A stretch of DNA of 64,000 nt, taken from the NCBI GenBank assembly GCA_029212885.1, contig JARGPC010000007.1, positions 4,652 to 68,651 on the forward strand, read 5' to 3'. A program made the translations under genes and the position numbers. Below the pieces are notes generated by a model. It did no database searches and was not told where the DNA came from. It worked only from the letters and a program-made list of their open reading frames with translations. Below, piece after piece: positions 18,812 through 37,438 of this stretch (the stretch's first letter is position 1; each line of letters begins with the position of its first letter). This DNA comes from Coxiellaceae bacterium (GTDB lineage: Bacteria > Pseudomonadota > Gammaproteobacteria > Coxiellales > Coxiellaceae).

Positions 18812-21790
18812 ATGAGAACACATATAGAACAACACCTAACCACGCATTTTAGACACAATAGCCTGTCTGAATATTTAAAACTTAAAAGCGACCAATTGCA
18901 GATTGCCAATGCAATAAATCACCCCCGCATGCACATGGCGAAAAATAGCTTAATGGCTATCAACTTAGCTGAAAAAACTGCGGCAAGCTTGCAGTGGCTA
19001 TGGCAGTATAAAACTACCATCATGCTCGCATCTGCCAGTGCGATGCTGACAGACTCGCTGTATTTCGGCATAGCACCCTGGATGATCACATCACTTGCCA
19101 GCGTCGCTGCCTCATATATCTATCCAGCAACAGCTGTAGCAACACTGGCCGTTGCCTCCTATAAAATCTATAAAGACGTTCTTTGTTTCGATGATTTACA
19201 TATTGGCCTTGAACCTGAGCCCACTCAACTTTCATATGTACAGCAAATAAAAAGGCTTGAAGTGAAAGCCGTACGCCATGCAACCAACGCATGGCTATCA
19301 TTAAGCACCGGTTGCGATCAAGCCGCGCTGAAAACAGCCGCAATCATAGCCTCATCATTCGCACCTGAATCTCCCGGCTTATGGCCTGGATGGGTAAGCT
19401 GGATATTGTCACTGCTGGGTGGCAGTCATCCGAGTGCTGATATCATGAACTCAAAAACACGCTTGCTACTCGATCATATTGAGAAAAAAATCACTGTGGA
19501 TGGCATCGGCATAGGAACACTTATCCACTGCTTAAAGCTAATTAAACAAAACAAAGAAGAAATTCGATACCACACCAATGGCACTGTCAATCAATTTTCC
19601 AGCCGTCTTTATGCTCTATTGAGTAAACTATCGCAACAAATGCAACAAGTGAATCAAGTCATCAAAACGATCTTTATCCACCTGGATACCATTGAAGAGC
19701 AATTACTATTAAAGCCAGGTCTGTTAACGCAACCCTTTCAACAGTTGGTCACTGAACTCTATGACCATTGCTATTTTATGGGATATACCTTTGCTACCCT
19801 GCCTTCTGAAAACGGGCAGCGCATTTATCGTGAAACACCACCGTTTACTGAATCCCGCCAACAGCATGCCTTAACACGGCAACAGCAGCTCAAACCGGAA
19901 GAACGTGTTGCAGCATACAATGAAGACAGTAGATTCAGCACCAGCAACATATCCCGCGCGAGACGGATGCTAGTTATTCTAAATGGTGAATCAATCAGTT
20001 ACTGCCGCATGATGGCAACACGCTTCAATAGCAAAGTAAGCATATATAAGCTCATTCGTGTAGCTGCATTAATTAATGGTGAACATGAATCAGAATACTT
20101 ATGGCTTTATAAGCGAGGCGAAAATACCCTCTCTTTTTATATTGACCGCATTCAAGCAACAATGCCACAGGTAATAGCGACCCCTTCGTATGACGCAGCA
20201 AAAAACCCTGCCTTTGATACTGAACAGGATTTATCGCTTGAAGCATATTTTTTGCGATCAAGCACTCAGCGAAAAATGGATACCGCTTCGCTGGATGAAA
20301 CAGGCGCACTAACAAAACTGTATACTTTGCAAAAAGAGTCAACTGACTTTTATTACAACATCTACCAACGATTTTTTGATTTATTTGGTGATGGTGGCAA
20401 ACTCGACAAACTGGGCAACGACCTTAGCAATCAAGGACGCAGGCAGTTAGCCTTATTGCGCGGGGAAGCTGACCGCATATTTAATAATCACCAGCTGCAT
20501 CCGCTAGAACGAATCACTTTAATATTAAGCTTAACTAAGCGTTATTTCCCACTGGGTGCTGTTGATGAATACCTAGAAGACTCAAATGCAAGTAATAGGC
20601 GACAATTATCATCGGATTTACAGTTTCTATACATAATCTTAAGCGACCCAATATTTTATAAAAATACTTATGACCTATTTAGCAGTGGAGGCTCATTAGC
20701 AAATCACAGCCATGTCGACATAAAGCACCGCGCTGATATTGTCCGAGACGTGATGAGTTATATTATGCAAGATAACACACTAGAATATGATCAGAAAACC
20801 GCGCAGATATCACATGTTATTCAAAGCAACTTCCCTATTGAACTGGCTGGATTCGTAGCTGAAAATGGCTTAAGCGATTATCTAAATCAATTGCAATACT
20901 ATCGTCAACCCCGAGCATCACTTACCAACAGCATTCCTCAGGGTGACGTACTCAACCCCTTACCCATTACCGAAAGTTTACGCGCACGTTCAGATCACAA
21001 CATTCCAGACTCCATCGCCATCTATCATTTTTTGCGCAACCATATTCAACATGAACACGGCTTTCTCGGGCAATTACTTTATGAACATAACCCTGCAGTA
21101 AATATGTCATTACAAACAATGCTGAATAACGTGAGAGACATGGCGTTTAGCACAAAATTTGATGAAGCTGAAAAACAAAAAGCAATCTGCCAACTGTTAT
21201 TTGCTTGTCATCGGCAACTGTCTGGCTTCCCCTATATTCAAGCGCATATAATGCATACGCAACATGCTTTTTTCGAACAAGCCTTAATAACTAGCTGCCA
21301 AGCTGAGGGTAATACCATTAGAGAACGCGTCTTTCGACGCCAGCAATTATTAAAAACAATTTTGCACCACCCAGCTGTAACATCACGCTCAAGAGCCACT
21401 CGCTCTAGTCGCCCCTCAAAAACCCGGTTAAGAAGGCGTAATAAACATACAGATCGTTATTTATTTTACGGCAACACACTACCTTGCGGCCTGTTAAGCT
21501 CAAAAGCAAAACTTGATGAACTTTTTACGCAAACCATCGATCTATACTGCACAATACATCGCCGTCGTAATGAAAGTCGCATGCTAGAAAATCTATTAGA
21601 TATCAGAGACAGTTTTTTCCCTACTGTGCCCAGTAGCGCGCATCCTGCCTGGGATTTAATCGCCTGCGTGGTTAACGAAATACGCGATAATCATTTGCGC
21701 TCTGATATCGTGGTAGCTTTCAAAGAGACCTGCAATGCAATATCACATGCCAATACGAGCGAACCCGGCATTGCACCGAGTCTTGCTTAA
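18812..21790 (+). CDS. Large orphan protein (992 aa), candidate effector
   Basis: Uninterrupted ORF with hydrophobic N-terminal segments. No recognisable domain. Confidence 0.5.
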   Translation: MRTHIEQHLTTHFRHNSLSEYLKLKSDQLQIANAINHPRMHMAKNSLMAINLAEKTAASLQWLWQYKTTIMLASASAMLTDSLYFGIAPWMITSLASVAASYIYPATAVATLAVASYKIYKDVLCFDDLHIGLEPEPTQLSYVQQIKRLEVKAVRHATNAWLSLSTGCDQAALKTAAIIASSFAPESPGLWPGWVSWILSLLGGSHPSADIMNSKTRLLLDHIEKKITVDGIGIGTLIHCLKLIKQNKEEIRYHTNGTVNQFSSRLYALLSKLSQQMQQVNQVIKTIFIHLDTIEEQLLLKPGLLTQPFQQLVTELYDHCYFMGYTFATLPSENGQRIYRETPPFTESRQQHALTRQQQLKPEERVAAYNEDSRFSTSNISRARRMLVILNGESISYCRMMATRFNSKVSIYKLIRVAALINGEHESEYLWLYKRGENTLSFYIDRIQATMPQVIATPSYDAAKNPAFDTEQDLSLEAYFLRSSTQRKMDTASLDETGALTKLYTLQKESTDFYYNIYQRFFDLFGDGGKLDKLGNDLSNQGRRQLALLRGEADRIFNNHQLHPLERITLILSLTKRYFPLGAVDEYLEDSNASNRRQLSSDLQFLYIILSDPIFYKNTYDLFSSGGSLANHSHVDIKHRADIVRDVMSYIMQDNTLEYDQKTAQISHVIQSNFPIELAGFVAENGLSDYLNQLQYYRQPRASLTNSIPQGDVLNPLPITESLRARSDHNIPDSIAIYHFLRNHIQHEHGFLGQLLYEHNPAVNMSLQTMLNNVRDMAFSTKFDEAEKQKAICQLLFACHRQLSGFPYIQAHIMHTQHAFFEQALITSCQAEGNTIRERVFRRQQLLKTILHHPAVTSRSRATRSSRPSKTRLRRRNKHTDRYLFYGNTLPCGLLSSKAKLDELFTQTIDLYCTIHRRRNESRMLENLLDIRDSFFPTVPSSAHPAWDLIACVVNEIRDNHLRSDIVVAFKETCNAISHANTSEPGIAPSLA

Positions 21791-21846
21791 ACACATTTGA
21801 ATAAGGTACACTCATAGCAATCAAACTAAAGATACGCCTTAACAAT

Positions 21847-22731
21847 ATGGCAACGAATCATCCACCAAAAACTGTTGGCACCGCCGTCCAAATACTAACT
21901 TTTTCTACCATTATATTTATTCTTTTTGTCATAACCAGAGTAACTAGCAGCCTACTCACCGAGCAAGCTACCTCATACCATAGCATAAGCACCAACTTAC
22001 TAGCACTTGGCGATGCTATCACTTACTTAATCATTGCAATCGTTTGCCTCGTAGGCATACACCGCGGAAAAAACTGGGCGCGCTACCTTTATCTCGCCTA
22101 CATTTGTGCGCGGTTTGCTGTACTCTATCTGAGCCATTCGTTTTCTCTTACCACTGTCACTCCAGTGATAACGCTAATAGTAATATCCTATTGGCTGCTG
22201 ATTGTTATTGGTATCACTTTACTTTTTTGCCCTGAAAGTCAATGTTACTTTAAAGGCGTTCCACCGCCTACATTTCAAGACACATTAAAGCGCCCGCAAA
22301 CAGTCAACACCGCTCTGCGAATCCAACTCTATAATTTAGCTGTTTTTATTGCCGGAGCCATTGCTGCAATTTTATATTATCGCGCGATTGGACAACCGCT
22401 ATGGCACCTTTCTCTCAACAGCACAATTGAAGTATTAATCGACACCCCGATCCACCTCATCATTATGGGCGGATTATTATTTGCGATGTACAGACAAAAA
22501 GCGTGGGCGCGTATCGTCTTTACTATTTATGTCATTTATCGACTGCTATTTCATTTCTACACCATTCACTACTTAGCCTATACAGTAAGGCTCGAGGTTC
22601 TTGTCTATGTTTTTCATGCCTTAAACTTCATAAGCTTAACACTGCTGTTTTGCCCAAGCAGTAACCGTTGGTTTTCCAGCGAAACAAAAACACCAAGATC
22701 TAACAACCAGCCCTGGAAAAACAAACCCTAA
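21847..22731 (+). CDS. Polytopic membrane protein with an internal two-fold duplication
   Basis: Two halves share HRGKNWARYLYLAYICARF / YRQKAWARIVFTIYVIYRL and LLFCPESQCYF / LLFCPSSNRWF. Confidence 0.5.
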   Translation: MATNHPPKTVGTAVQILTFSTIIFILFVITRVTSSLLTEQATSYHSISTNLLALGDAITYLIIAIVCLVGIHRGKNWARYLYLAYICARFAVLYLSHSFSLTTVTPVITLIVISYWLLIVIGITLLFCPESQCYFKGVPPPTFQDTLKRPQTVNTALRIQLYNLAVFIAGAIAAILYYRAIGQPLWHLSLNSTIEVLIDTPIHLIIMGGLLFAMYRQKAWARIVFTIYVIYRLLFHFYTIHYLAYTVRLEVLVYVFHALNFISLTLLFCPSSNRWFSSETKTPRSNNQPWKNKP

Positions 22732-22736
22732 AGCTT

Positions 22737-22805
22737 GAACAATAAGGTTGCACGCTCCTTCCGGCCTAAAGACCGGGGTCTCAGACCAACAAGGAATTAT
22801 GATGA
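22737..22805. repeat. Family 2 dispersed intergenic repeat (short form)
   Basis: GAACAATAAGGTTGCACGCTCCTTCCGGCCTAAAGACCGGGGTCTCAGACCAACAAGGAATTATGATGAAT. Its second copy at 36426-36585 carries a ~80-bp internal insertion. Confidence 0.8.
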
Positions 22806-22807
22806 AT

Positions 22808-23785
22808 TTAAATTTTTAAAATGATTTTTCCAGTATTTTTATTGTCTTCCATGTATTGATGCGCCTCAGCAACCTGCTCGATAGAAAACACACTATCCAC
22901 CACTGGCTGCAACAGCTGATCATCAAACAACGGTAAAAATTCCTGAGTGAATCGTTGTGTCATTAAACGCTTAGCAACAATTTCACGGCTACGCATAATC
23001 AAACCTTTAATCTGTAAACGATATCGAATCAAACGTCGCAAATCCAACTCTGCTTGCCAACCTTGCATCATAGCAATATTCACTAAGCGACCACCTTTAG
23101 CTAAGCAATGCAAGTTATCACTGAAATATCCTGCACCAATGAAATCTAAAATGATATCCACGCCCTTTTTATTACTATACTGCTCGACTATTTCACGAAA
23201 TGATTGCTGCTTATAATTAATACCTACATCACCACCGAGCGCCTTTACTTTTTCTAATTTTTGATCTGAACCTGCAGTATAAAATACCGTGGAACCTTTC
23301 AATTTTGCTAATTGCACTGCAGCTGTACCAACGCCACTAGCACCCGCATGAATTAATACGTCCTCGTTGTCGCCAAGCTCTCCTAAAATAAATAATGCCT
23401 GCATCGCCGTTAAGAATGCTTCCGGTATTGCTGCGGCCTGCTCATACGATAATACCTCAGGAGCACTCATCAACATACCCGCATCAACTAAGCAATATTC
23501 CGCATAAGCTCCGCTTCCCACTAACGCACAGACCCTATCACCAACCATCCAATCAGTGACATCATCCGCAACTGAACTGATCTCGCCACTGACCTCTAAA
23601 CCTAAAATATCAGACTCACCCGGCGGTGGTGGATACTTACCTTTACGTTGTAATACATCCGCTCGGTTAATGCCTATGGCTTTAACCTTTACCAATACTT
23701 TACCTGCAGTGACTTCAGGAAAAGGCACTTCCGTTAACTGCATCACTTCAGGCCCGCCAAATTCAGGCAGCGTTACCGCTCGCAT
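22808..23785 (-). CDS. qor: NADPH:quinone oxidoreductase / zinc-type alcohol dehydrogenase superfamily (Qor-like)
   Basis: MRAVTLPEFGGPEVMQLTEVPFPE...GINRADVLQRKGKYPPPPG and a GAGYFS-type NAD(P)-binding Rossmann motif. The start is taken at MRAV rather than the upstream ATG. Confidence 0.85.
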   Translation of the reverse strand: MRAVTLPEFGGPEVMQLTEVPFPEVTAGKVLVKVKAIGINRADVLQRKGKYPPPPGESDILGLEVSGEISSVADDVTDWMVGDRVCALVGSGAYAEYCLVDAGMLMSAPEVLSYEQAAAIPEAFLTAMQALFILGELGDNEDVLIHAGASGVGTAAVQLAKLKGSTVFYTAGSDQKLEKVKALGGDVGINYKQQSFREIVEQYSNKKGVDIILDFIGAGYFSDNLHCLAKGGRLVNIAMMQGWQAELDLRRLIRYRLQIKGLIMRSREIVAKRLMTQRFTQEFLPLFDDQLLQPVVDSVFSIEQVAEAHQYMEDNKNTGKIILKI

Positions 23786-24977
23786 GCTTACCTCCTCGTG
23801 AAACAAAATATATACATAACACCAAACAGGCTAGCGCTATAAACAAAAATAACATAGACATTGCACGCTGATTCTGAGCATGCGGAATTGATACCAGCGC
23901 ACTCATAATCGATGCAATTAATATTTGCGTAAAACCATAAGTTGCACCTGCTGTGCCTGCCATTTTGGGGTAAGGCGATAAAGCGGTACTGGTAGCATTT
24001 TCAAATAGCAAGCCAACACCAAAAATAAACAATCCACCGGGCAATACAACTACCCATGCATTGATGTACCCCATGGAATACGTGATCAAAAAAACCAATG
24101 CAGCAACTAACATTACCGTTACTCCGCTCAGCAACATCGCATATGTACCTACGCGCGAAACAATAACACTATTCAAAATATTAGCTACACCTAAACAACC
24201 TGCAATCGCAAACGCCGTCCATCCGTATTGCACCGGCGACAAACCCACCACATGCTGCAATATAAATGGACTCTCAATAAGATAAATTAAAATACTGCTA
24301 TAACTCAATCCCGCCATTAATGCCGCACCCATAAACTGTGCATCACTAAACAACGACCAATAACGCGACACCAATACACGCGGCTTAAGCGGCACCTCAT
24401 TTAAATAGCGATTAGTTTCAGGCAACCATATAAACATCACAATAAGAAAAAATAAAATATACCCCAGCATAAATAAAAAATTAGCACGCCAACCAAAATA
24501 TTGCTGCAGATAGCCACCTAGCGCTAACGATGCCATTAATATTAACGCAATCGCAATCATGATATAGGACGCAAAGCGCGATAGCCGTGCCCACTTACCA
24601 TACACATCACGCATCATCGCTCGGTAAATCACCACCCCCGCCGACATTCCCAAACCTTGCACCGCGCGCCCCACCATCAATAAGGCTATATGCGTAGACA
24701 TATAACAAATCAACGTACCTAACCACGCAATCGAAAAGCCAATCATCACCATTCGTCGTCGACCAAAGCGATCCGATAGCGGACCATAAAATAATTGCGC
24801 AATACAAAATGCAAACATATAACAGCTGACTGTTAATTGCACTAATGATTTGTTGGTGACCAATGCCATCGGGATAGAAGGCATCGCAGGGCTAAAAATA
24901 TCATTGGCAATTACACCAATCGTGCCCATGACAACGATTAAGCCAAACAATAAAACCGGGTGTAATTTCGTGCTCAT
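23763..24977 (-). CDS. MFS transporter, Bcr/CflA drug-resistance subfamily
   Basis: 12 TM segments with GPLSDRFGRRRMVMIGFS (MFS motif A). Confidence 0.85.
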   Translation of the reverse strand: MSTKLHPVLLFGLIVVMGTIGVIANDIFSPAMPSIPMALVTNKSLVQLTVSCYMFAFCIAQLFYGPLSDRFGRRRMVMIGFSIAWLGTLICYMSTHIALLMVGRAVQGLGMSAGVVIYRAMMRDVYGKWARLSRFASYIMIAIALILMASLALGGYLQQYFGWRANFLFMLGYILFFLIVMFIWLPETNRYLNEVPLKPRVLVSRYWSLFSDAQFMGAALMAGLSYSSILIYLIESPFILQHVVGLSPVQYGWTAFAIAGCLGVANILNSVIVSRVGTYAMLLSGVTVMLVAALVFLITYSMGYINAWVVVLPGGLFIFGVGLLFENATSTALSPYPKMAGTAGATYGFTQILIASIMSALVSIPHAQNQRAMSMLFLFIALACLVLCIYFVSRGGKHASGNAA

Positions 24978-25004
24978 ACTGTAATAGTATCAGCCACACT
25001 GCCC

Positions 25005-25697
25005 TTAAGCCATTAACGATTGCAACTGCGGCTGATCCAATAAAGTAATATGGCGACGCCTAACACTAATGACTTGCTGCTTTTCTAATTGCGTCAACAA
25101 GCGGCTAACCGTCTCGCTAGCCAAGCCCAAATAATTGCCAACATCCTCACGTGACATCGGCAAATTGAATTGCGTCGATGAACAACCTCGGCGCTTATAG
25201 CGTGATGATAGGTTTGCTAGAAATCCGACCAGACTTTGCATCGCTGTTGCTTGCCGGCTGGAAAATTGCTCACGCGTCATTTGACCACTCATCATACAAA
25301 ACATTTGTTTTTGTAATATCGGCAATTCAGAGGCCACCTTTAATAATTGTTCAAATGGAATCTTGCATACTGTGCTGGTTTCAAGCGCTTTAACTGTTGT
25401 AATATAACGCTGATCAGAGATTGCATCAAATCCAAACAGCTCTCCAGGCAAGTGAAAGGCGAGTAATTTTTCACTACCATCACTGCTCAATTGCGTGCAT
25501 TTAAATGCACCCGATTGCACTGCATATAATGCTGTAAACTCATCACCAGCTCGACACAACACCTCGCCACGCTCAACCATAATGCTGCGATCAATCAACG
25601 ACGATACCGTCTGCATGTGTTGGTCACTTAACCCCATCGGCAAACAAACCGGATGTAAACAACAATCACCACACCTTACTCTATGCATATCATTCAT
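25005..25697 (-). CDS. fnr: FNR/ANR oxygen-sensing transcriptional regulator (Crp/Fnr family)
   Basis: N-terminal Cys cluster C-x2-C-x5-C (RCGDCCLHPVC) plus a central Cys (ETSTVCKIPFEQL, cf. E. coli ETSMVCEIPFETL). HTH REDVGNYLGLASETVSRLL (cf. REDIGNYLGLTVETISRLL). Confidence 0.9.
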   Translation of the reverse strand: MNDMHRVRCGDCCLHPVCLPMGLSDQHMQTVSSLIDRSIMVERGEVLCRAGDEFTALYAVQSGAFKCTQLSSDGSEKLLAFHLPGELFGFDAISDQRYITTVKALETSTVCKIPFEQLLKVASELPILQKQMFCMMSGQMTREQFSSRQATAMQSLVGFLANLSSRYKRRGCSSTQFNLPMSREDVGNYLGLASETVSRLLTQLEKQQVISVRRRHITLLDQPQLQSLMA

Positions 25698-26965
25698 TTT
25701 ATAATCTCACCCGCTAAACATAACTCATTAACACCCGTCGTATATGGCCCACTGGCCGGCAATCGCAATAAACGCCTCACGGCTAAATAAGCAAAAATTT
25801 CAGCTTCAATGGCTTGCGACTGCCAATTGACTTGATCACACAATAACGCTTCTGCTTTTGGCAAATGCTGCTTTACCAGCTGCTTAAATATGTTAAGTAA
25901 CACCGGATTGTTCCAGCCACCACCCGCAAGAATTAAACGCTGGATCCCGGCTCGGGGGCCGGGATGACAAGTGCGGGGGCCGGAGTCAACCTCTGTCATC
26001 CCCGAGTCAACCTCTGTCATCCCGGACTTGATCCGGGATCCAGCCAACAAGCCTTGCACCAACATATCCGCAGTAAAATACGTCACAGTATAACAAGCAT
26101 CATAAAAAGCCTGCCCCTGTAAAGCGATACCTTCAGGTAAAACCAGGTCATGAATATCTAACGACTTCGGCCATGGCCGATCAGCAAACAACTGCGCATC
26201 ACCGCACACAGCTGTTTGCCACAACTGTTGCAGCAATGCTGTATCAAGCTGGCCTTGAGACGCAAAAAAACCGTCCTTATCATAATGCTGCTTACCCTCA
26301 GTCGCCAGCATCACCAAACGATCAATCAAACCATTACCCGGCCCAATATCACTGGCTTGCACTTGCTCCCAACCTTCACCTGCAACACAGGTGGCATTGC
26401 AAATGCCGCCACAATTTATCACTACCGCCGGCGCTAATTGATCACGCAATACCAATGCCTGATGATAAGCCGGCGCCAACGGTGCGCCCTGCCCACCCTG
26501 CAATACATCATGCAAACGAAATTGGTGCACCAATGGCACCGCTAAAGTATCCGCTAAAGTATCCGCTAAATAATCAGCATCACCCACTTGAATGGTCACC
26601 CCATCTTGTGGTGCGTGATATAACGTCTGCCCATGAAAACCAATCACATCCACCGGTTGATCAACTTGTTGCATTAATTGTTGAATCGCCTGCGCATGAT
26701 ATTGCGTTAATTGCTGCAAACTGCTTACCCAATGATCGCAACGCTGCTGAACAATTGACAGATTACCTTTTGCTTCTGAACACAGCTGCGCCAATTTTTT
26801 TAAGTCGCCTTGCAATGCCGAGGGATAATTAACCGACACATACCCTAACGATTCAATTTCATCCACACCATTAGTGCGGATCATCGCCACATCAACACCA
26901 TCCATTGAGGTGCCGGACATCGTGCCAATTGCTGTATATAAAGTCTGCTGATTCATGCTGCGCAT
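25694..26965 (-). CDS. anmK: Anhydro-N-acetylmuramic acid kinase carrying an in-frame ~105-bp repeat-element insertion
   Basis: N-terminus MRSMNQQTLYTAIGTMSGTSMDGVD matches the AnmK start (MSGTSLDGVD). The C-terminal LILAGGGWNNP corresponds to the conserved GGG(A/V)xN block. The segment SGMTEVDSGMTEVDSGPRTCHPGPRAGIQ is encoded by the family 1 repeat at 25940-26045. The start is chosen at the AnmK-like Met, since the upstream ORF extension to 27187 overlaps the sodC promoter region. Confidence 0.85.
   Translation of the reverse strand: MRSMNQQTLYTAIGTMSGTSMDGVDVAMIRTNGVDEIESLGYVSVNYPSALQGDLKKLAQLCSEAKGNLSIVQQRCDHWVSSLQQLTQYHAQAIQQLMQQVDQPVDVIGFHGQTLYHAPQDGVTIQVGDADYLADTLADTLAVPLVHQFRLHDVLQGGQGAPLAPAYHQALVLRDQLAPAVVINCGGICNATCVAGEGWEQVQASDIGPGNGLIDRLVMLATEGKQHYDKDGFFASQGQLDTALLQQLWQTAVCGDAQLFADRPWPKSLDIHDLVLPEGIALQGQAFYDACYTVTYFTADMLVQGLLAGSRIKSGMTEVDSGMTEVDSGPRTCHPGPRAGIQRLILAGGGWNNPVLLNIFKQLVKQHLPKAEALLCDQVNWQSQAIEAEIFAYLAVRRLLRLPASGPYTTGVNELCLAGEIIK
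25940..26045. repeat. Family 1 hairpin repeat copy inside the anmK coding sequence
   Basis: CTGGATCCCGGCTCGGGGGCCGGGATGACAAG...CCTCTGTCATCCCGGACTTGATCCGGGATCCAG. It has the same termini as the copies at 375-478, 1085-1186 and 33430-33568. Confidence 0.85.
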
Positions 26966-33436: not shown

Positions 33437-33568
33437 CAAACCTTGTCATCCCTGGTAAGACTTGTCATCCCTGGCCCCGACCAGGGATCCACATATTACC
33501 CTGGATCCCGGATCACGCCAGCTTCGCTGGCTGTCCGGGATGACAAGCCAAAGTCCGGGATGACAAAT
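33430..33568. repeat. Family 1 hairpin repeat cluster (GTCATCCCTGG / CCAGGGATCC and GTCCGGGATGACAAG variants) between convergent genes
   Basis: At least four half-units are visible. The cluster supplies the stop codon of the + strand gene and the last ~19 codons plus the stop of the minus-strand DAHP synthase. Confidence 0.85.
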
Positions 33569-35566: not shown

Positions 35567-36286
35567 ATGAAGCGAATAACCCCCATTTTGACCTCCGCCT
35601 TAGCCGTATTAGCACTGGCTGCTGTCAGCAGCCTACAAGCCAAGCCGGTTAATACCGATACCCGACACTATGGCAAGCACTTATGCCCAGAGAAAGGCTA
35701 TGACTGCATCCGCGTTAAACGTGGTGATACATGGCGCAAGCTATTCCCCAACCCCAGAGAACGGGATTTAGTGATGCGCTTAAACCGCACCAACCAAGGA
35801 ATACATAACCGTCCATGGATTGTTGTTCCTGCTGATGTAGCCTCTGTCGACATCATGGATGTCAGTCCATTCCCAGACCACATCAAAAATACTGGCGAAC
35901 GAACCATTGTAGTTAGCCTTAAAAAACAAGCATTTGGCGCTTATAACAAGCATGGCTACTTGGTGCATTGGGGGCCCATTTCAGGCGCTAAGGGTTATTG
36001 CCCCGATATCGGTAAAAAATGCGAAACCATGACGGGTACCTTTAAGTTTGTACGCAAAGACGGCCCACGCTGTTATTCCAAGAAATTTCCAGTCGGCAAA
36101 GGTGGCTCACCGATGCCTTATTGCATGTTCTTCTACCGCGGCTTTGCCATGCATGGCTCAACCTTGCCAGGCTATCATGCTAGCCACGGCTGCGTACGCA
36201 TGTTCTTTGAAGATGCGGAGTGGCTGAACAAAGGCTTTATCCGTACCGGTGAACATGGTACACGGATTGTTGTTACCAAAACCTAA
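35567..36286 (+). CDS. L,D-transpeptidase (YkuD domain), secreted
   Basis: Signal peptide and catalytic motif HGSTLPGYHASHGCVRM. Confidence 0.85.
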   Translation: MKRITPILTSALAVLALAAVSSLQAKPVNTDTRHYGKHLCPEKGYDCIRVKRGDTWRKLFPNPRERDLVMRLNRTNQGIHNRPWIVVPADVASVDIMDVSPFPDHIKNTGERTIVVSLKKQAFGAYNKHGYLVHWGPISGAKGYCPDIGKKCETMTGTFKFVRKDGPRCYSKKFPVGKGGSPMPYCMFFYRGFAMHGSTLPGYHASHGCVRMFFEDAEWLNKGFIRTGEHGTRIVVTKT

Positions 36287-36425
36287 GCTGCACCTCTTAC
36301 ACCATTAATCCCGGCATCTTAGCCGGGATTTTTATTTGTAGATACAAGTTCATTGTCCGCCTATCCACCTTGATACCACCCTTAGTCAGAATCGCACGCT
36401 AAAATTGCTAGCTGTGATACAATCA

Positions 36426-36585
36426 CCCCCGAACAATAAGGTTGCACGCTCTGCGTGCACTCAGGTTTGGAAGGTGTTTGAATCACCTCCCAAACCCGCG
36501 CGAATGAAAGCTGACAGTCTCTGTCAGCACGCGCTCCTTCCGGCCTAATGGCCGGGGTCTCAGGCCAACAAGGAATTTTGATGAA
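36426..36585. repeat. Family 2 dispersed intergenic repeat (long form, with internal palindromic insertion)
   Basis: It shares GAACAATAAGGTTGCACGCTC ... CTTCCGGCCTAATGGCCGGGGTCTCAGGCCAACAAGGAATTTTGATGAAT with 22737-22805. The extra segment contains GCTGACAGTCTCTGTCAGC palindromes. Confidence 0.8.
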
Positions 36586-37438
36586 TGCAACTAAATCAAC
36601 TATTCGAGCCATTGGGCAACTGATACGATTCGACAAGCCCATTGGCAGCTTATTATTACTGTGGCCCACGATGTGGGCATTATGGCTCGCCGCCGATGGC
36701 ATGCCGCCATGGCCAATTCTACTGATCTTTATTGCCGGCGTGTTTGTCACTCGCTCAGCAGGTTGCGTGATCAATGACTTATGGGATCGCAGGTTTGATG
36801 GTCGCGTAAAACGCACCGCCACACGACCACTCGCCAGCGGCGCCCTATCGGTTCGAGCCGCATTGGCAGTGCTATTCATCCTAGCTGCCACCGCTTTAGC
36901 ACTGGTGTTATGCCTGAATGCTTTAACGATTAAACTGGCTTTTGTCGGCGTGGTACTCACCGCGTCGTACCCGGCCTGCAAACGATTTTTTAAATTACCG
37001 CAACTGGTGTTGGGCTTAACATTTAATTGGGGCGTGATCATGGCGTTTGCCGCCATACAAAATCATGTGCCAATGATCGCTTGGTGGCTATATGCCATCG
37101 TGAATGTATGGACAATGGTTTACGACACCCAATATGCCATGGTTGATCGTGATGATGATATCAAGCTCGGCCTGCATTCCAGTGCGATTCTATTTGCAAG
37201 CTATGATCGCGTGATCATTGCCAGCTTACAAACCGTAGTCATTGCAGGGTTGTTATTACTGGCCGTAGCGCGCGCCACGCACTGGCCATTTTATTTATCT
37301 TTAGTCATTGCGAGCGGATTATTTGTATATCAGCAACGACTGACATGGCAACAACAACGCGAACCATGCTTTAAAGCGTTTCTAAACAATCAATGGGTAG
37401 GGCTAGTGATTTGGCTTGGCTGGGTATTAGGCAGCTAA
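36584..37438 (+). CDS. ubiA: 4-hydroxybenzoate octaprenyltransferase
   Basis: NDLWDRRFDGRVKRTATRPLASG and a second Asp-rich motif YDTQYAMVDRDDDIKLG. The start is set at MNATKSTIRA. Confidence 0.9.
   Translation, partial: NATKSTIRAIGQLIRFDKPIGSLLLLWPTMWALWLAADGMPPWPILLIFIAGVFVTRSAGCVINDLWDRRFDGRVKRTATRPLASGALSVRAALAVLFILAATALALVLCLNALTIKLAFVGVVLTASYPACKRFFKLPQLVLGLTFNWGVIMAFAAIQNHVPMIAWWLYAIVNVWTMVYDTQYAMVDRDDDIKLGLHSSAILFASYDRVIIASLQTVVIAGLLLLAVARATHWPFYLSLVIASGLFVYQQRLTWQQQREPCFKAFLNNQWVGLVIWLGWVLGS

Follow-up and report, generated by a model that had tools for sequence, protein, structure and literature searches.

A two-copy, lineage-specific repeat between promoter and start codon of ubiA in a Coxiellaceae bacterium and its candidate Shine-Dalgarno sequence

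The ubiA locus and the two copies of the repeat

The window analyzed here, by which we mean the whole 64-kb stretch of DNA, contains a ubiA gene whose 285-aa product belongs to the 4-hydroxybenzoate polyprenyltransferases (Pfam UbiA, E 1.7e-61) and whose best database matches are named 4-hydroxybenzoate octaprenyltransferase. The start codon at 36581 agrees with the 285-aa database protein P0001 and with an N-terminal alignment, in which homologues from the same clade, Aeromonas and Photobacterium begin within 1-3 residues of one another, and the in-frame ATG at 36548 was rejected as the start because it would add 11 residues that are present in no homologue. The gene upstream, of the ykuD type, is followed by an intrinsic terminator that ends its transcription unit, and hence ubiA needs a promoter of its own. 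The putative promoter is an extended -10 element that ends 7 nt before the repeat described below and 157 nt before the ubiA ATG. At its other end ubiA overlaps a convergent giant gene (3455 aa) by 4 bp (37435-37438). This overlap is shared by relatives, as in the related locus L001 (10843-10846), where the giant gene encodes 3244 aa and has no Pfam domain on record, and since no terminator can fit between the two genes, transcripts of each are expected to continue into the other in antisense. Elsewhere in the window there is a 6S RNA (SsrS) gene on the minus strand (60189-60368; Rfam RF00013, 53.6 bits, above the gathering score).

The features of the ubiA start region and of the second copy of the repeat are as follows.

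36307-36336, plus strand: intrinsic terminator of the upstream ykuD-type gene, a 9-bp stem (AATCCCGGC/GCCGGGATT) with a T-run, found by terminator scan
36415-36423, plus strand: extended -10 element TGaTACAAT, a putative promoter, conserved with relatives (TGtTACAAT)
36431-36451, plus strand: left arm of the repeat, GAACAATAAGGTTGCACGCTC, 21/21 nt identical to 22737-22757, beginning at the expected transcription start
36447-36451, plus strand: left CGCTC of the 5-bp direct repeat that flanks the extra segment, seen as the overlap of the arm matches in the short copy
36452-36531, plus strand: 80-bp extra segment, in the ubiA copy only, without a second copy in the window or elsewhere in the data searched
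36532-36536, plus strand: right CGCTC of the 5-bp direct repeat, read from the sequence
36532-36586, plus strand: right arm of the repeat, 51/55 nt identical to 22753-22807, holding the anti-SD, the hairpins, the SD and the ubiA ATG
36535-36539, plus strand: anti-SD TCCTT, complementary to the AAGGA and 30 nt upstream of it
36540-36555, plus strand: right-arm hairpin CCGGCC/GGCCGG
36556-36566, plus strand: right-arm hairpin GGTC/GGCC
36570-36574, plus strand: candidate Shine-Dalgarno (SD) sequence AAGGA, inside the repeat and 6 nt upstream of the ubiA ATG
36581-37438, plus strand: ubiA
22737-22807, plus strand: short copy of the repeat, 71 bp, filling most of a 76-bp spacer between two gene stops

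The first-pass annotation had placed a repeat at 36426-36585, directly upstream of ubiA, and had given it the same termini as a shorter copy at 22737-22805. Both observations hold with small adjustments, as the ubiA start is confirmed by the alignment and the database protein, and a long copy of 156 bases at 36431-36586, within 5 nt of the earlier limits, matches a short copy that ends at 22807. The left arms are identical and the right arms are 93% identical (BLAST E 7e-17). In the short copy the last 5 nt of the left-arm match are also the first 5 nt of the right-arm match, so the extra segment of the long copy is exactly 80 bp, and once this segment is taken out the copies agree at 67 of 71 positions. 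With up to 3 mismatches allowed, patterns made from the arms match only these two sites in the window, against 0-0.02 matches expected in shuffled sequence, and this together with the BLAST result excludes a chance origin of the similarity. The edges of the repeat are sharp, the flanks of the two copies being without similarity, and the first two codons of ubiA, ATG AAT, lie within the shared segment. Nor is the short copy an assembly artefact, since an independent Logan assembly contig, L012 (SRR23604822), is 100% identical to window positions 13442-25314 and reads through it unbroken.

The pair had previously been called repeat family 2. The two copies are genuine, but they are the only members in the 64-kb window, where the 80-bp segment is moreover unique. 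No further copies were detected in the window by blastn-short or by an nhmmer profile of the 71-nt unit, and the repeat is absent from ~90 kb of syntenic DNA of relatives. The blastn-short searches covered the window and the first five related loci, and the nhmmer searches, with both the 71-nt unit and the 80-bp segment, covered the window and all 15 loci and returned nothing beyond the window's own copies. Exact 20-22-mers from both arms had 0 matches in GTDB species-representative genomes, the exact right-arm pattern had 0 matches in JGI metagenomes, and concatenated six-frame peptides of both copies had no match at E <= 10 among 5.8 billion proteins. A second copy of the 80-bp segment was likewise found neither in the window nor in the 15 related loci, and its hairpin pattern had 0 matches in JGI metagenomes. 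A candidate third, partial copy upstream of the gene for a 294-aa protein (~21805-21846) scored at background level and was dropped.

The Logan assembly is taken to use k = 31, and with this k the unbroken passage of L012 through the short copy argues against many identical copies. A second contig of the same organism, L015, ends at window position 1121 inside a 35-nt tandem array of a different repeat, referred to here as family 1, which fits a high copy number of family 1 in the genome. Considered together, the contig that crosses the short copy and the contig that stops in family 1 provide a weak hint that the repeat at ubiA does not exist in many identical copies.

The spacer occupied by the short copy lies between the stop of the 294-aa membrane-protein gene (22731, plus strand) and the stop of the NAD(P)H-quinone oxidoreductase (QOR) gene (22808, minus strand), and between these convergent genes the short copy precedes only a 6-codon ORF. 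A 1-kb segment (21791-22807) that includes the 294-aa gene (21847-22731) is missing at the orthologous site in the related loci L006 and L009, which there lies between a 992/1011-aa gene and QOR. In L009 the spacer (3586-3695) that separates QOR from the 1011-aa gene holds, in inverted orientation, the 11-mer TTGCACGCTCC, which in the window repeat spans the exact site of the 80-bp segment; its local score is 22 compared with a maximum of 21 in 300 shuffles, and the spacer is otherwise unlike the repeat. The 294-aa protein has no Pfam match, its best homologue is 55% identical, and it looks internally duplicated, with residues 3-136 and 145-278 each matching separate ~135-aa proteins. The short copy is also bracketed by a perfect 9-nt inverted repeat (CTGGAAAAA at 22713-22721 and TTTTTCCAG at 22825-22833) whose halves fall within the final codons of the convergent genes and which may be due to chance (~0.04 pairs expected). 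The position of the short copy after the 294-aa gene also raised the possibility of an integron attC site, which was rejected as the core and inverse-core motifs, judged by eye, did not fit.

The start region of ubiA in relatives and in the window

The gene order ykuD-ubiA-giant gene is kept in three relatives (L001, L003, and L004; UbiA 84-88% identical) and the ykuD-ubiA pair is kept in the outgroup L013 (64% identical). The repeat is absent from all four of these ubiA loci, as it is from both related QOR loci (L006 and L009), and the spacer between ykuD and ubiA is 70-160 bp in the relatives compared with 294 bp in the window. Even in the relatives with UbiA at 84-88% identity the spacers are too diverged for base-exact empty-site junctions, and this is one point against the account that we propose below. 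The distance from the -10 element to the ATG was read by anchored extraction around the ATG in the five genomes. In L001, L003, and L004 the element TGtTACAAT ends 10 nt before the ATG and in L013 the sequence TATACT ends 7 nt before it. None of the motifs AGGA, GGAG, GAGG, and AAGG occurs within 20 nt of the ATG in these four relatives, whereas the window has AAGG/AGGA. A -10 element so close to the start codon, combined with the lack of an SD motif, suggests that the ubiA mRNA of the relatives is probably leaderless, or nearly so, and transcribed from an extended -10 promoter. The regions concerned, with the -10 box and the start, are 9975-10003 in L001, 10044-10072 in L003, 1028-1056 in L004, and 1065-1086 in L013. 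Gene callers gave discordant upstream starts for ubiA in two of the relatives (proteins of 306 and 293 aa), as would be expected from a true start that has no SD sequence.

We propose, with moderate confidence, that a low-copy, lineage-specific interspersed sequence of 71 bp was copied into the interval between the promoter and the start codon of ubiA, and that a gene of leaderless appearance in the relatives is now leadered and SD-dependent. The repeat begins just past the conserved extended -10 box, at the position where we infer that transcription starts, and it would therefore make up the whole of the ubiA 5' leader, which would be ~150 nt. Short 5' extensions are known to strongly depress leaderless initiation (PMC8459731), so a leader of this length would be expected to abolish it, and translation of ubiA must then use an SD sequence. 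The only one available is the repeat's own AAGGA, which would take over initiation at ubiA. No promoter was detected in 36100-36800 by a scan that depends on the presence of a -35 box, and this counts against the proposed account.

The repeat would also bring with it a means of partly hiding the ribosome site, in the form of the TCCTT and the two small hairpins of the right arm. In the minimum-free-energy fold TCCTT pairs with AAGGA around the two hairpins, and the unpaired probability of the G-G-A of the SD is 0.03-0.16 in three of four sequence contexts, while the first G of the SD is unpaired with a probability of 0.55-0.67 in the two longest contexts. The ribosome site of ubiA is thus predicted to be partly occluded, from which a regulatory effect might follow.

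It had also been suggested that the repeat can donate translation-initiation signals, and this survives for the SD sequence but not for the start codon. That the repeat supplies the SD of ubiA is well supported by comparison of sequences, as an SD is absent at the orthologous site of the four relatives. The ATGAA, on the other hand, is native-like. The relatives also start ubiA with ATGAA(A), and in L009 a GATGAAT adjoins the stop codon of QOR, and hence the (G)ATGAAT with which the shared segment closes (5-7 nt) may be native target sequence at both sites and the start codon itself may be ancestral. These few nucleotides may then not belong to the copied unit and may instead point to a preferred target or to a duplication, and the uncertain right boundary that results is a further point against our account. 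If the account is nevertheless true, a small repeat that lands at a transcription start gives an apparently leaderless housekeeping gene a long, structured leader that depends on an SD, and selfish or neutral repeats can bring signals for translation as well as promoters or terminators. The window and its relatives would then represent a natural allele pair for leaderless versus leadered expression of ubiA.

Rival accounts of the repeat and of its extra segment

The internal extra segment with inverted repeats of its own, as described in the first-pass annotation, is borne out as a segment of 80 bp with which three inverted repeats are associated. Two strong hairpins are found at 36464-36496 (arms 36464-36479/36481-36496, 16 nt, 88%) and at 36510-36528 (arms 36510-36517/36521-36528, 8 nt, 100%), and the third inverted repeat (36443-36449/36453-36459, 7 nt) straddles the left junction. 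The ends of the segment are complementary, GCGTGC (36453-36458) to GCACGC (36527-36532), the latter taking in the first base of the right CGCTC. The fold of the long copy has an energy of -69.3 kcal/mol (z -4.96 compared with shuffles) and that of the short copy is no better than shuffles (z -0.32). The minus strand of the segment also offers two terminator-like hairpins (36528-36510 and 36459-36443).

The 80-bp difference between the copies could have come about through insertion of a second small element at ubiA, or through loss of the segment from the other copy. We give a slight preference to insertion, and loss is only a little less probable. In the latter case there would be no nested element, the 156-bp form would be the original, and the 71-bp copy would have arisen by replication slippage between the CGCTC repeats. 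Slippage is favored by the exact 5-bp direct repeat that flanks the segment and can be extended to GCACGC(GC)TC, by the strong hairpins of which the segment is made, a classic substrate for slippage deletion, and by the result that no other copy of the segment was found in the window, in the 15 related loci or, by its hairpin pattern, in JGI metagenomes. However, an exact 5-bp duplication together with complementary ends (GCGTGC...GCACGC) is equally expected of a small transposed element. The CGCTC repeat itself fits target duplication and slippage deletion equally, and each of the two histories needs one event.

Among the alternatives to our account of the repeat as a whole, the one that survives best is a segmental duplication or an ectopic conversion in place of a mobile family. 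In this case ~70 bp would have been copied just once from one site to the other, the two being the 5' region of ubiA and the junction of the 294-aa gene and QOR, perhaps when a rearrangement brought the 294-aa gene to its position. We consider this possible, if distinctly short of probable. Only two copies are known, which also counts against our own account, as mobility would have to be read from these two. The unit has no terminal inverted repeats, and neither its exact patterns in GTDB genomes and JGI metagenomes nor its six-frame peptides in the protein database gave a match. The short copy is, moreover, at the edge of the 1-kb segment that is missing from the relatives' site, and it is crossed by an unbroken Logan contig while another contig breaks in family-1 repeats. 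A single copying event is less easily reconciled with a shared segment that is sharply bounded by flanks without homology, and with a core that resembles abundant CCGG-hairpin repeats, as the cores of mobile small repeats often do. The copying of an interspersed repeat that we prefer must for its part accommodate a short copy that has neither a significant fold nor a gene to serve.

A functional link between the two loci was also considered. The QOR gene (22808-23806, minus strand) has no predicted terminator before the short copy, against which it ends, and hence the 3' UTR of QOR should hold the reverse complement of the repeat. The QOR mRNA strand reads the short copy as the complement of the ubiA leader, with 51 of 55 nt complementary across the anti-SD, the SD and the AUG, and the predicted gain on cofolding the two is ~ -72 kcal/mol compared with -7 for shuffles. 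QOR transcripts might thus block or destabilize ubiA mRNA in trans and so couple quinone reduction to ubiquinone synthesis. We regard this as very unlikely, since transcripts of any repeat pair so oriented are bound to be complementary.

Marginally less likely still is that the leader represents a dedicated cis-regulatory RNA, such as a riboswitch, thermometer or attenuator, selected to control ubiA. This would agree with the predicted pairing of anti-SD and SD, with the very stable predicted fold, and with the fact that two of the four substitutions between the copies are in stems where pairing is kept or improved. Nevertheless, Rfam gave no match at gathering or relaxed thresholds (the best relaxed score was 23.6 bits for che1, for which the gathering score is 54.1), none of the four related ubiA loci has it, the second copy precedes nothing but the 6-codon ORF between convergent genes, and the fold owes most of its stability to the 80-bp segment, which is missing from the second copy. 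The weakest alternative, in which the copies are the attL and attR of a 13.8-kb integrated island with a replacement ubiA 5' end, takes account of direct repeats 13.8 kb apart, one of which includes the first codons of a gene, but it is effectively refuted by synteny, as the order QOR, MFS, Crp, AnmK, SodC ... DAHP synthase, YkuD is the same in repeat-free relatives, so that the chromosome between the copies is ancestral, and there is no compositional break and no integrase or tRNA gene between the copies or elsewhere in the window.

Comparison with known classes of small repeats

Of the two readings suggested from the sequence, one MITE within another or a long/short pair of forms, the MITE reading finds no support in the structure of the repeat. 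An inverted-repeat search of both copies revealed no terminal inverted repeats of the 71-bp unit, the only end-to-end pair being a 6-mer (36441-36446/36586-36591) that lies partly beyond the shared segment. Both copies begin with GAA and end with GAA-T, and thus a 3-bp duplication is inseparable from the element. The 80-bp segment does have an exact 5-bp duplication, CGCTC, in a single instance that deletion explains equally. With no terminal inverted repeats, no separable target duplication and two known copies, the term MITE is not warranted.

Several classes of small bacterial repeats have properties in common with the one described here. Correia elements exist in long and short forms that differ by an internal segment, and the window repeat resembles them in this respect, as well as in its position upstream of a gene and in the structured leader that it would form. 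The Correia or NEMIS elements of Neisseria are small intergenic repeats located just upstream of genes, and they are co-transcribed to give structured leaders that alter expression (PMC10969869). On the other hand, Correia elements have 26-bp terminal inverted repeats, a TA target duplication and more than 100 copies, and they contribute an IHF site or promoters, whereas the window repeat has no terminal inverted repeats and two known copies, and its contribution would be an SD sequence and not a promoter. The ERIC or IRU elements of enterobacteria and Yersinia are ~127 bp in length and are transcribed, and they have variants with insertions of ~70 bp at fixed sites or with internal deletions, which is reminiscent of an intergenic repeat with an internal-segment variant in the window. 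According to work cited in PMC10969869, Yersinia ERIC elements located in mRNAs change the fate of the transcript. An ERIC element is, however, one long imperfect palindrome present in many copies, whereas the window unit is not palindromic overall and has two copies. Closest in terms of the host are QMITE1 and QMITE2, from the same bacterial family, the Coxiellaceae. QMITE2 of Coxiella burnetii is found in full-size versions of 150-190 bp and in small REP-like versions, in UTRs and intergenic regions, and it is transcribed (PMC5896051). It has terminal inverted repeats, direct repeats of 7-11 nt, a GTAG REP and ~50 copies per genome, none of which is seen in the window repeat, and it is by this published description, and not by sequence, that the window repeat is set apart from QMITE1 and QMITE2.

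The remaining likeness is to REP/BIME sequences and to family 1. Family 1 is an abundant short palindromic repeat with a unit of approximately TCTGTCATCCCGGCCTACGAGCCGGGATCCAG, arranged in tandem arrays of 21 nt and 35 nt, and it is found in the window at 339-480, 638-675, 1085-1189, 25940-26043, and 33461-33498 and in relatives at L001 9918-9949, L003 9961-10030, L006 1745-1774, and L009 1615-1644. One or two family-1 units are in frame inside the coding sequence of anmK (peptide ...SGMTEVDSGMTEVDSGPRTCHPGPRAGIQ...), and the AnmK genes of L006 and L009 carry family-1 matches at the corresponding place, which suggests that an in-frame insertion of the Rickettsia-palindromic-element type took place long ago and has been tolerated. 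The family-1 units of L001 and L003 sit in the spacer between ykuD and ubiA, which in relatives is a hotspot for short palindromic repeats of this kind. At its core the 71-bp unit has CCGG-N8-CCGGGGTCTCAG, which is similar to the CCGG-N8-CCGGGATGACAG of family 1, and it may represent a family-1 hairpin to which flanks were added. Unlike family 1, it has ~20 nt of non-palindromic sequence on each side, and the similarity between the two is weak (nhmmer E 0.8-2).

In function the repeat at ubiA resembles the Correia, ERIC and QMITE elements, but it is not a demonstrated member of any of these groups, as it has no terminal inverted repeats and its sequence gave no match in the data searched. It reveals no new kind of element or mechanism, and its one notable effect, the apparent change of ubiA from leaderless to leadered, represents a fairly ordinary rewiring of a gene start by a small repeat. 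We class it among the small interspersed bacterial repeats in general, as a new member specific to its lineage.
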